NCBI GenBank assembly: GCA_022573715.1
Contig: JACZTL010000005.1
Coordinates: 7,265-71,264, forward strand
Direction: 5' to 3'
Length of the DNA stretch: 64,000 nucleotides
From: Bacteroidota bacterium
GTDB taxonomy: Bacteria; Bacteroidota; Ignavibacteria; Ignavibacteriales; Ignavibacteriaceae
Position numbers and translations under genes: made by a program. Position 1 is the stretch's first letter. Each line of letters opens with the position of its first letter. Below the pieces are notes generated by a model. That model worked only from the letters and a program-made list of their open reading frames with translations, was not told the origin of the DNA and searched no databases. Below are positions 35,438-38,418 of this stretch, piece by piece.

Positions 35438-35968
35438 TCGGAAGAGTATTCAGCTAATTTTAACGCAGAAGAATTAACTTCAGTTGTGTGTGTTTTTACA
35501 AGCTTAAAAAAAATAATCTTGCAGTATAGTTTAATAAATGTTTTATACGAATCTGCAAGTTAAGTAATAATTAGGAAACAGGAATTATTGATTACGTAAT
35601 TTAGAACGCTAAGCCCATTACTTAATAAAAGAATAATAAAATGGACACTTTGCAGAAATCAATACAAAATTCAGAACATTTCTTTTCTGAATATCAGATT
35701 ATTTTTTGGTCTCTTTTGGCCATCATATTAATTCCTTTAGCCGTACACTATCTTCAAAATAGGAAAGAAAAAAAAAAGACTCTTACATACATTTCGTGGA
35801 GGTAAATGGTATAAGGCATTAGGTATTACTTATCATCTATTTAAAGAAGCCAGACCTTATAGCAAATATTTTCATCGTGATGAAATCGAAAATATAATCC
35901 TAGAAAAAATCAACAACAAAAAAGATATTGTTCTTCTAGGCGCTCCCCTGCGAGGCAAAACCAGAACA

Positions 35969-37825
35969 ATGGTAGAGTGCATACGACAGCTTAAAAACAC
36001 ATTTGTATTAATCCCTTATCCTTCCGATTATAACACCGAAATTATATTTCCAAGGCAACACCTTCTTAGAAGAAAAAACAGAATTGTTGTTTTCAATGAT
36101 CTACAAAAATTCTTTGAGCCTGGCAAAGACATTTTGAAACTTATTGACAAAATAAAGGAACAAGATTGGCATATACTAGCTAATTGCAGAACAGTAGAAG
36201 AATGGGAAACCGTAAAACGTCTTTGGGGTATTTCATCGAACATATTAGAGCCGATTGAAATTCCAGAAGTAGATGAAAATTTTGCTTTGCAGGTTGCCGC
36301 GCTCAATGGAATTCCTCTTCCATCTTATTTCGATCGCAAAAATATTGGAACCATATTTGTCAATCTTGATGAAATGCGGCTAAGGTATAATTCCAAAATA
36401 TCCAACACTCAAAAACAAATACTTATCGCAATTAAAAAACTTTTATTTGTTGGAGTTAATAATTCAAAAGGAGAAATACTATTGTCATCAATAAAAGAGC
36501 TGACTGGCTTGCTCCCTTTACAGTTAACTGATCCTGAATGGCTAGACAATCTGACGGGTATAATTGAAAAAGGATTTGTTTCCGGATCGCATTTAGCAGT
36601 GGTTCCCGAACAGGTCTATTTCGACCTTATTATTGAGCCTCAACTTTCAATCGGAGATATCATAAATGACATTATAAAAATATCTGGAGAGAACAATCGA
36701 GTTTTAAACAAGCTGATCTACTCAGCTGAAACATCAGAAAAGGCAATCGATATTATTCGGGAATTTCAAAAAGCGAGCATCAAGCTTGATGTCTACCACT
36801 ATAATATAGCAATAGCTAAGCAAAAAAGTGAAAGGGAAGGGAAAAGATTATTGGATGAAATGATAAAAAAGGGAATTCCACCCGATGTAGTTACATACAC
36901 TACTCTCATCCATCTCTGCAAGGATTATAATTTAGCCGTTGCTCTCAAAACTGAAATGATAAAAAAGGAAATTGCGCCCAATGTTATTACATACTCTACG
37001 CTTATCAATCTCTGCAAGGATTATAATTTAGCCGTTTCCCTCAAAAATGAAATGATAAAAAAGGGAATCGCGCCCAATGTAGTTACATACACTACTCTCA
37101 TCCATCTCTGCAAGGATTATAATTTAGCCGTTGCTCTCAAAACTGAAATGATAAAAAAGGGAATCATGCCCGATGTAGTTACATACACTACTCTCATCCA
37201 TCTCTGCAAGGATTATAATTTAGCCGTTGCTCTCAAAACTGAAATGATAAAAAAGGAAATTACGCCCGATGTAGTTACATACAATACTCTCATCCATCTC
37301 TGCAAGGATTATAATTTAGCCGTTGCTCTCAAAACTGAAATGATTAAAAAGGGAATCACGCCCGATGTAGTTACATACAATACTCTCATCCATCTCTGCA
37401 AGGATTATAATTTAGCCGTTGCTCTCAAAACTGAAATGATTAAAAAGGGAATCACGCCCGATGTAGTTACATACAATACATTATTAGAAAAAGCTGAAAA
37501 TGAAGGAGATACAATTAAATGGATTATTGAATTTTGCTCAACAGACCTTATTCCCAATGCAAGAACTGCAGCAAGCCTTGAAAAAGCTATTCCCTTGTTT
37601 GTCGCAAGTTCAAGATTAAATGAAATGTTTGACATGTTGCTTCGTTTCAACCCAATATTGTTTTTCAGTTTGATTAGTAATTTTGATATTGATATAGTAA
37701 GCAAATTCATCTTAGAATTCCCTACCGAAATAAAATCTACAGATTTTAATAAACTTGGATTTGTTAATTATTATCTTCACCAAAAAAGGACTGATTTAGC
37801 GAAGAATTTTCTAGATATATGTTAA
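35969..37825 (+). CDS. largest intact ORF of the disrupted NTPase/PPR-like gene
   Basis: ORF-track entry of 618 aa. Contains a Walker-B-like IVVFNDL, a helical middle domain and the tandem repeats VVTY(T/N)[25 protein letters not shown](D/N). Confidence 0.6.
   Translation: [618 protein letters not shown]
36791..37558 (+). repeat. tandem array of 8 x 96 bp coding repeats (32-aa PPR-like motifs)
   Basis: Unit starts are 36791, 36887, 36983, 37079, 37175, 37271, 37367 and 37463. Units at 37271 and 37367 are identical over 96/96 nt. The six central units are near-identical and the outer two are diverged. Confidence 0.9.
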
Positions 37826-38238
37826 ACGCATAATTATTACTTTTATAAGTATTCTGGAAATTATTGGTACCAGACTGGTGATGGAGCACGAGCGGAAGAA
37901 AATTATAAAAAAGCGGTTACACTTTCAGAAAACGAAATACAACGGGCAAGAATTTATAATAAATTAGCAGAACTTATTAAAGATCTCAACATAAATAATA
38001 AAATTGATGAGGCAATTGAATATTGCAAGCAATCTATTTACATCCAACCGGATAATTCGCCTGAAGCAAAGCAACTATTAACTTTTTTTACTATTGAATT
38101 TAATTCAATAGATGACTTATCAGAAAAAATAAAAGAACTTAAGATTAAATATAAAATTGGTAAAAAGACTATTTCAGTGGCATTAAGTGATATCAATGAT
38201 GAAATAAAAAAAAGTTTAATTAGAGAATATTTTTTATG

Positions 38239-38418
38239 ATAATACCAAGTCATTGTAGATTCAACGGTGGTTTTGTGTTCACCGGGTATTGAGTTAAAGT
38301 ACTGGACAAAGTTATAGTCAACATTTTTAATGTTTTCTTGTTTGACGATTTTCCCGGAAGAACCAACAGTAGTCAAATATGAAGTAAACTTGTGAAGATC
38401 GGTGCCTGTGTAATACAT
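38239..38418 (-). mobile_element. IS110-family transposase gene fragment (N-terminal ~60 codons only)
   Basis: MYYTGTDLHKFTSYLTTVGSSGKIVKQENIKN....GEHKTTVESTMTWYY resembles the IS110 DEDD N-terminus (GxDLHK ... hhhE.T..Y). Similarity stops near 38240. The rest of the track ORF is antisense to the + strand TPR-like segment. Confidence 0.5.

Follow-up and report, generated by a model that had tools for sequence, protein, structure and literature searches.

A single gene split by a frameshift and a stop codon

The window analysed here is a 64,000-nucleotide stretch of DNA from a Bacteroidota bacterium (GCA_022573715.1, contig JACZTL010000005.1), in which positions 35641-38239 of the forward strand form a single gene, split by a +1 frameshift and an in-frame TAA codon. 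From its 5' to its 3' end, this gene encodes a transmembrane helix, a nucleoside triphosphatase (NTPase) module predicted to be of the STAND type (signal transduction ATPases with numerous domains), an array of pentatricopeptide repeats (PPR), a helical domain and a tail weakly resembling tetratricopeptide repeats (TPR). A first-pass annotation, made from the sequence alone, had proposed that three collinear coding segments reconstruct one protein of ~865 residues. Rebuilding the open reading frame (ORF) as suggested there, by deleting one A and reading through the TAA, gave a protein of 865 residues with one internal stop, and orthologs which are continuous over the breaks established that the segments belong together. 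The 618-aa ORF of the locus has been deposited as a hypothetical protein.

Segment 1 is a 54-codon ORF which extends from the ATG at 35641 to a TAA at 35803-35805, its product being MDTLQKSIQNSEHFFSEYQ-IIFWSLLAIILIPLAV-HYLQNRKEKKK... The ORF and its translation define, upstream of the frameshift (35641-35767, + strand), a tail of 19 residues followed by the transmembrane helix IIFWSLLAIILIPLAV (35698-35745) and by RKEKK, a basic juxtamembrane stretch. This helix, already recognized in the first-pass annotation, belongs to an anchor kept in most members of the family, and the basic residues which follow it would, according to the positive-inside rule, place the N-terminus outside the cell and the C-terminus inside. 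Segment 2 is open in the +1 frame from 35741, its earliest ATG, GTG or TTG codon being located at 35969. The P-loop LLGAPLRGKTRT (35933-35968) lies 5' of this first start codon, and the coordinates, once checked, bear out the earlier statement that the protein listed for this ORF is truncated at its N-terminus. Both segments are joined by the deletion of one A in an A10 homopolymer (35768-35777, + strand), which is the frameshift site.

Downstream of the homopolymer, the + strand encodes successively the AAA+/STAND NTPase module (35778-36790), eight 32-residue PPR repeats (36791-37558) and a helical post-PPR domain (37559-37822), which shares 41-47% identity with its orthologs and for which no match was obtained in Pfam. 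The in-frame TAA nonsense codon follows at 37823-37825, and past it the same frame remains open for 137 further codons, forming the C-terminal tail (37826-38239) which ends with a TGA at 38237-38239. At ~30% G+C, ~8% of random codons are stops and 137 consecutive codons would be stop-free with a probability of ~1e-5 (our own estimate), so that this stretch exceeds what chance would produce. The list of ORFs has none of 30 aa or more in the frame of the tail, which thus lacks its own start codon over most of its extent.

Four orthologs, P0003 (710 aa), P0005 (931 aa), P0006 (973 aa) and P0007 (984 aa), are continuous over both breaks, as are the two halves of the ortholog encoded at locus L003, while a C-terminal fragment, P0262, is continuous over the TAA position. 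At this position, a sense codon is found in the orthologs: the window reads LDIC*THNYYFYKYSGNYW, P0003 LDSTVTHNFYYFKYSGDYW, L003 LDSVTTYNYHYFKYSGNYW, P0005 LDLCSIRNYYYYKYSGDYW and P0262 LDSVTIRNYPFFKYSGNYW. The search for intact relatives, which the first-pass annotation had called for, thus returned proteins spanning the breaks and not independent genes. Locus L003 (GCA_038044765.1, labelled Nanoarchaeota archaeon) is a 2.8-kb scaffold whose ortholog is 63-70% identical to the Bacteroidota protein and has a 100-N gap within the PPR array; with so short a contig, the archaeal label may be a binning error.

Two further assemblies of the locus inform on the origin of the lesions. In a contig from a different sample (L002, ~99% identical), both the A10 run and the TAA are found as in the window, and sequencing error was rejected as the cause of the frameshift since both recur in this independent assembly. 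In a 116-kb scaffold from a third sample (L014, 99.5% identical), the run is A9 and a single ORF extends from the start codon into the PPR array; the TAA is retained there and is thus found in all three assemblies. This scaffold differs from the window by nine codons (five synonymous and four amino-acid-changing differences, a count uninformative about selection), all located in codons 4-86 around the poly-A tract, at L014 4340-4600 against window 35641-35900, with zero differences in the other ~590 comparable codons. Because the differences are clustered in this manner, the A9 allele looks like it rides on a short recombined or divergent patch rather than resulting from a simple slip. The tail past the TAA retains 42-56% identity to its orthologs, on par with the rest of the protein, which indicates a recent nonsense mutation. 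The copy carried by this genome is therefore inactive, truncated or turned off. We read it as a recent pseudogene or as a gene which has been switched off.

The NTPase module and its family

The NTPase module is composed of a nucleotide-binding, a helical and a winged-helix domain, with ANCRT as its sensor-1 region. Its Walker A motif, GAPLRGKT (within 35933-35968), fits GxxxxGK[ST], and residues G54, G59 and K60 are invariant in an alignment of 123 sequences. The Walker-B-like IVVFND motif noticed in the first-pass annotation was located at 36083-36100, where both the strand and the position are correct in the AlphaFold model. Within the family, the Walker B consensus is hhhhDD, each D being at least 90% conserved; the window protein, P0002 and P0003 carry N-D (36095-36100) instead of D-D, which is kept in the more distant orthologs of the PPR clade, P0005-P0007.

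AlphaFold2, supplied with the 123-sequence alignment, returned a model with a predicted local distance difference test score (pLDDT) of 89.6 and a predicted template modelling score (pTM) of 0.82, in which a beta-alpha P-loop core is followed by a helical bundle and by a winged helix with a beta-hairpin wing. A first run with four sequences was poor (pLDDT 65) and has been superseded by this model. When compared to the PDB with Foldseek, the model matched ORC/Cdc6 (8s0e_G, E=9e-7), the Sir2-STAND protein EfAvs5 (9jap_A, E=1.2e-6), Avs4 (8dgf, E=1.6e-6), CED-4 (2a5y, E=6e-6), the archaeal Walker-type or AAA+ ATPases PAB2304 and SSO1545 (2qen and 2fna, E=8e-6 and 5e-5), the AVAST5 filament (9nc9_D, E=1.7e-5) and an entry entitled "negative regulation of the maltose system" (8bob, E=1.7e-4), which we take to be MalT. 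The top matches span ~350-415 alignment columns with modest template modelling scores (TM-scores) of 0.33-0.41, low values being expected for multi-domain models. Searches of residues 1-390 of the rebuilt protein against Pfam, NCBIfam and PADLOC returned nothing, and PDB sequence searches with the NTPase domain, as a single sequence or as two profiles, returned nothing significant; hence, only structure comparison placed the module.

A search with the N-terminal 407 residues retrieved four proteins among 5.8 billion, while an exhaustive hmmsearch with a profile of the N-domain retrieved, out of 1.84 billion, 786 cluster representatives at E<=1e-3, 168 of which reached E<=1e-30. Among the top 150 representatives, most possess a hydrophobic 19-mer (Kyte-Doolittle >2) located ~60-90 residues before Walker A, making the membrane anchor a trait of the family. 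Its members share the motifs GxPLxGKTR, DDLxxF, ATCRSGxE and FDGxIGSIF and differ by their arms: among 75 full-length relatives, 50 carry TPR_12, 13 TPR-S and 7 PPR_2. The leading Pfam match among these relatives is nSTAND3 (PF20720), found in 11 of the 75 proteins, and when isolated N-domains of the family were searched, 15 of 22 matched nSTAND3 at E<=0.1 (best 6.5e-8). The relationship between the window protein and nSTAND3 is therefore indirect, as it runs through matching relatives. Collectively, the AlphaFold model, the Foldseek matches and the nSTAND3 matches of the relatives agree with the STAND-type P-loop NTPase which had been proposed at first reading.

The module thus described belongs to an unnamed family, a divergent, mostly membrane-anchored nSTAND3-like branch with a small clade carrying a PPR arm. 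No model of this family is present in the Pfam, NCBIfam or PADLOC libraries searched, and no relative of the NTPase domain was found in a plasmid collection. The family is patchy and rare, with mostly singleton clusters, and its members with names come from metagenome-assembled genomes of Bacteroidota, Zixibacteria (as "tetratricopeptide repeat protein") and Hodarchaeota (Asgard). In the 564-aa protein of the Hodarchaeota genome (L007, 4673-6367), the NTPase is combined with a transmembrane helix and a TPR arm. Another relative, P0004 (L005, 5153-6655), has an archaeal context, adjoining an archaeal histone-fold gene, and is devoid of a transmembrane helix.

The 32-residue PPR array and the C-terminal tail

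Among modular RNA readers, PPR repeats are understood best, and they are considered to be essentially eukaryotic. In the window protein, the array gave matches to Pfam PPR_2 (E=1e-59; 198.9 bits for a cut-off of 30), PPR_3 (E=1.2e-46; 157 bits, cut-off 25) and PPR_1 (E=2.5e-37; 126.7 bits, cut-off 23.8) as well as to TIGR00756 (61.7 bits, cut-off 20), and a phmmer search of the PDB retrieved the designer PPR protein dPPR-U8G2 (5i9h_A) with E=2.3e-145. The eight 32-residue units which had been called PPR-like are accordingly true PPR repeats. They are arranged as a degenerate R0, six near-identical 96-bp units (R1-R6, of which R5 and R6 are the same) and a C-terminal cap, R7; Tandem Repeats Finder reported a period of 96, 6.5 copies and 93% matches. 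A period of exactly 32 residues is found in the window protein, in P0005 and in the cyclase-like PPR proteins described below, and not the standard PPR period of 35. Alignment with the designer PPR shows that the 32-mer lacks three residues of the 35-mer consensus, namely one following position 9 and two within helix B.

In the PPR code, specificity is assigned to positions 5 and 35, and it is with these positions of the designer PPR that positions 5 and 32 of the array align. Among the five most similar repeats of the window, amino acid changes are found only at codons 5, 28, 30 and 32, and the presence of both code positions among four varying codons has a hypergeometric p of ~0.012 (our own calculation). 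In the window, T,S,T,T,N,N is found at position 5 and N,N,D,D,D,D at the last position. When six internally conserved 32-residue arrays are compared, no position other than 5 varies in every one of them, with only N, T, S or A, while position 32 varies in four of the six, with only D or N; the same code alphabets are found in P0005, P0189, P0215, P0241 and P0178. The array further retains the RNA contacts of solved PPR-RNA complexes, namely V2, N/T/S at position 5, K12 (K13 in 35-mer numbering) and a final D/N. Read nominally with the code, it would spell 5'-U-A-A-G-G-U-U-(C/U)-3', a reading which is illustrative only.

The same exact 32-residue period was found in a second group of bacterial metagenome proteins (P0178, P0180, P0189 and P0219, with fragments P0206, P0215 and P0241; loci L015, L016 and L017), whose N-terminal domain contains motifs resembling those of class III nucleotidyl cyclases (VYCLSMDL..ST, KFTGDGW and VGDSARRATR). 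This domain matched PADLOC PycC (E=0.013 and 0.018) and Pfam Guanylate_cyc (E=0.28), and its profile matches in the PDB were nucleotide cyclases in seven of seven cases (best E=0.027). The support for a class III cyclase-like (PycC-like) identity, as judged from these matches, is weak but consistent. The genes adjoining these loci are ordinary bacterial ones (DksA/TraR, CspA, LepA).

With respect to the C-terminal tail, which the first-pass annotation had described as a TPR-like segment following the TAA, the continuation of the frame was borne out while the TPR assignment stayed below threshold: TPR_1, TPR_8 and TPR_2 scored 19.7, 19.1 and 18.5 bits (E=7e-4 to 2e-3) for cut-offs of 25.7-27.8. 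The NCBIfam model Ycf3 also matched the tail (E=6.5e-4), far under its cut-off.

A candidate conflict sensor, its alternatives and its genomic setting

The interpretation which we favour, and in which we place somewhat more belief than doubt, is that the locus is a disrupted single-gene conflict sensor, built on a membrane-anchored STAND NTPase (nSTAND3-like, Avs-like). In such a protein, the C-terminal repeats (the PPR array and the TPR-like tail here, TPR_12 in relatives) are predicted to form the STAND sensor. The cytoplasmic PPR array would perform the sensing and would most likely bind a specific single-stranded RNA of the invader, this ligand being the most economical guess since the PPR arm keeps the RNA-contacting residues. 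Upon ligand binding, autoinhibition would be released and NTP-dependent oligomerisation would follow, as in other STAND proteins, by analogy with Avs (PMC13581612; PMC12931631). The clustered N-terminal transmembrane helices would then constitute the output, through membrane perturbation and abortive infection; as no enzymatic effector domain is present, this clustering is the only visible output. We thus infer RNA sensing coupled to a membrane-directed output, and analogy with known STAND systems suggests a role in defence.

Several of the elements of this proposal are already known, i.e., STAND NTPases with helical-repeat sensors, transmembrane segments fused to an Avs sensor and the prediction of PPRs in PaAvs5-3. 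The sensors of STAND proteins are mostly helical repeats, with modules common to STAND and non-STAND proteins, and the domains listed as fusion partners of an Avs sensor include transmembrane segments (PMC13581612). Antiviral STAND proteins other than Avs5 (Avs1-4, Avs7-21; NLR-like) share with the window protein an N-terminal output, a central NTPase and a C-terminal helical-repeat sensor. Those Avs families for which triggers have been reported (Avs1-4, Avs7, Avs11 and Avs19-21) are described as sensing phage proteins with TPR-like arms (PMC13581612), whereas a PPR arm with RNA-code residues would point to RNA. A PPR sensor is not mentioned in PMC13581612, and the eLife papers from the Aravind group contain nothing on nSTAND3 or PPR.

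One of the closest known relatives in architecture is Avs5 (AVAST type 5; PDB 9jap, 9nc9), which associates Sir2, nSTAND3 and repeats (PMC12931631). Like the window protein, it is a single-gene STAND protein in which an nSTAND3-type NTPase precedes alpha-helical repeats, and its NTPase is matched at the structural level (9jap_A, E=1.2e-6; 9nc9_D, E=1.7e-5), although no sequence-level match was obtained between the Avs5 chains of the PDB and the window protein. Where Avs5 possesses a Sir2 effector, the window protein has no Sir2 match and begins with the 19-residue tail and one transmembrane helix. The first-pass annotation knew of no bacterial system combining a P-loop NTPase with PPR-type repeats; this statement has to be corrected, as PaAvs5-3, which has a Sir2 effector and no membrane anchor, is a published precedent with PPRs predicted by TPRpred (PMC12931631). 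Unlike this TPRpred prediction, the PPR assignment made here comes from very strong Pfam and PDB matches. With P-class and designer PPR proteins (5i9h, 5i9f, 4pjq and PPR10, 4m59), the array has in common the helix-turn-helix repeat and the N/T/S and D/N code alphabets; it differs from them by its period (32 instead of 35), by its prokaryotic host and by its fusion to a STAND NTPase and not to organelle-targeting or editing domains. What is new is threefold: a distinct, mostly membrane-anchored nSTAND3-like family, a clade of this family with a bona fide and apparently code-competent PPR array instead of TPR and a prokaryotic 32-residue PPR variant, also carried by a cyclase-like domain.

A broader idea, to which we attach a rather low probability, is that prokaryotes own a portable 32-residue PPR module, mounted on both a STAND NTPase and a cyclase-like domain, with which immune-type proteins would sense the sequence of single-stranded RNA in a programmable manner. 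If true, NLR-like receptors would exist which read the RNA sequence of an invader rather than a protein fold, and which would evolve by repeat shuffling and by changes at two code positions; it could also bear on the origin of PPR repeats. Whether some prokaryotic NLR-like receptors sense RNA sequence is thereby made a testable question, and compact 32-residue prokaryotic PPR scaffolds could serve the design of RNA-targeting proteins. As the present copy is broken, its value lies in the family that it reveals and not in the physiology of this genome.

Several observations weigh against a conflict sensor. No experiment ties any member of the family to defence, and no PADLOC family was matched at E<=1 by the rebuilt protein or by P0005. 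With regard to the STAND assignment, the window protein did not match nSTAND3 (PF20720) at E<=1, nor did its N-domain at E<=0.1, its closest orthologs falling short of this model as well, and the N-D found in place of D-D in Walker B suggests that hydrolysis may be lower or slower in this sub-clade. The lone transmembrane helix argues only weakly for an effector, as it may simply anchor the protein. Proteins are also possible ligands of PPR-like helical repeats, and the 32-residue variant is a putative RNA binder. The copy number of the 96-bp repeat is uncertain, the array (window 36887-37462) differing among short-read assemblies, with eight units in the window, two in L002 and scaffold gaps in L014 and L003; the two units of P0003 may also reflect assembly collapse. 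Finally, several relatives sit among housekeeping genes, and the conserved neighbours which the first-pass annotation had proposed to look for were not found, no conserved neighbour or effector gene being shared across L001, L005, L007, L008 and L010.

The lesions themselves could be read in another way, the gene being functional and switchable, with A9/A10 phase variation or transcriptional slippage restoring the frame and the TAA setting a shorter protein of 727 aa without the TPR-like tail. RNA polymerase slips on runs of at least nine A, A9 and A10 alleles do occur in populations more than 99% identical, and the two lesions stand apart in a gene with no further decay, whose tail is conserved like the rest. 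We nevertheless regard such a switch as unlikely, since the A9 allele comes with nine codon differences clustered in codons 4-86 and none elsewhere, since chance alone would yield A10 runs at ~30% G+C (~2 per strand in 64 kb, our own estimate) and since the TAA is common to all three assemblies; in addition, the tail is kept by all orthologs, so that its loss is probably damaging. Next to no credence can be given to the view that the three segments are unrelated genes or an assembly artefact, even though the source is a metagenome-assembled genome and a repeat array is hard for short-read assembly. Intact orthologs are collinear over their full length, and the flanks as well as the lesions are reproduced in two further assemblies; this view is already contradicted, leaving only the repeat copy number uncertain.

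The protein might also be foreign to immunity and act as a membrane-tethered, NTP-gated RNA-binding regulator in a housekeeping or signalling pathway, for instance by holding or processing a cellular transcript. Eukaryotic PPR proteins are RNA-metabolism factors, and both the lack of an effector domain or PADLOC match and the frequent location of relatives among ordinary genes (FolD in L001 and L006; CspA and LepA beside a cyclase-like PPR gene) would fit such a function. We give this regulator little weight: the family is patchy and rare with mostly singleton clusters, the gene occupies different loci in different lineages, the repeats are homogenised internally with variation at the code positions, and the gene is prone to loss or breakage, as seen here, traits which point to a conflict gene rather than to a core regulator. 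It is very improbable that the gene is instead a horizontally acquired, eukaryote-like effector directed against the organelle RNA of a eukaryotic host, a role which has reportedly been proposed for PPR proteins of Legionella longbeachae. The repeats bear a striking resemblance to the plant P-type consensus, and plant PPR proteins are their best non-orthologous matches, but the NTPase to which the PPR arm is fused is of the prokaryotic STAND type and carries an N-terminal membrane anchor, and most of its relatives bear TPR arms and occur in free-living bacteria and archaea. Moreover, the 32-residue period is common to other bacterial proteins, whereas a PPR spacing of 35 was measured in the two other PPR proteins examined alongside, P0179 and P0184, and the G+C content of the gene (32.9%) fits that of the window (30.6%).

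Returning to the conflict sensor, its genomic setting is accessory, in agreement with the first-pass annotation, which had placed the gene beside a VapC/PIN cassette. Upstream, the + strand encodes a type II toxin-antitoxin cassette (34593-35257) composed of a DUF6364 antitoxin (34593-34847; Pfam DUF6364, E=1.2e-27, 96.6 bits for a cut-off of 27.3) and a PIN-domain toxin (34847-35257; PIN_3, E=6.7e-19, 69.2 bits for a cut-off of 27), the two ORFs overlapping by base 34847. The toxin also matched a VapC-like model of NCBIfam (E=1.1e-7), below its cut-off. On the other side, the IS110 remnant proposed at first reading found no support. This 126-aa ORF (38038-38418, - strand) has only a by-eye motif resemblance to IS110 (GTDLHK...VESTM), and an IS110 identity was rejected after searches of Pfam and NCBIfam at E<=1 and a tblastn search of 72,556 plasmids returned no match.

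In a strain 97.6% identical over DusB and a 149-aa gene (L011), the DNA left of ~38621 is unrelated to that of the window and contains, at L011 1-761, a 164-aa C-terminal protein fragment without an NCBIfam match; the intergenic spot is thus strain-variable, its cargo differing between strains. The orthologs of L001 and L006 are both located downstream of folD, a locus different from that of the window. At L001 (6515-9822), P0003 is followed by an MvaI/BcnI-type restriction endonuclease, an N4/N6 methyltransferase, another methyltransferase and a DUF559 protein, a neighbourhood which, from its gene content, resembles a defence island.

The DUF6364-PIN cassette of the window is itself flanked by 164-nt direct repeats (34301-34464 and 35272-35435), which are 91% identical and suggest that a duplicating or recombinational event brought the cassette in. 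The first copy consists of the last 84 nt of a 927-aa LysM/SLT gene and of the sequence downstream of it, while the second recreates a 32-aa ORF (35257-35355) which duplicates the C-terminus of the LysM/SLT gene.

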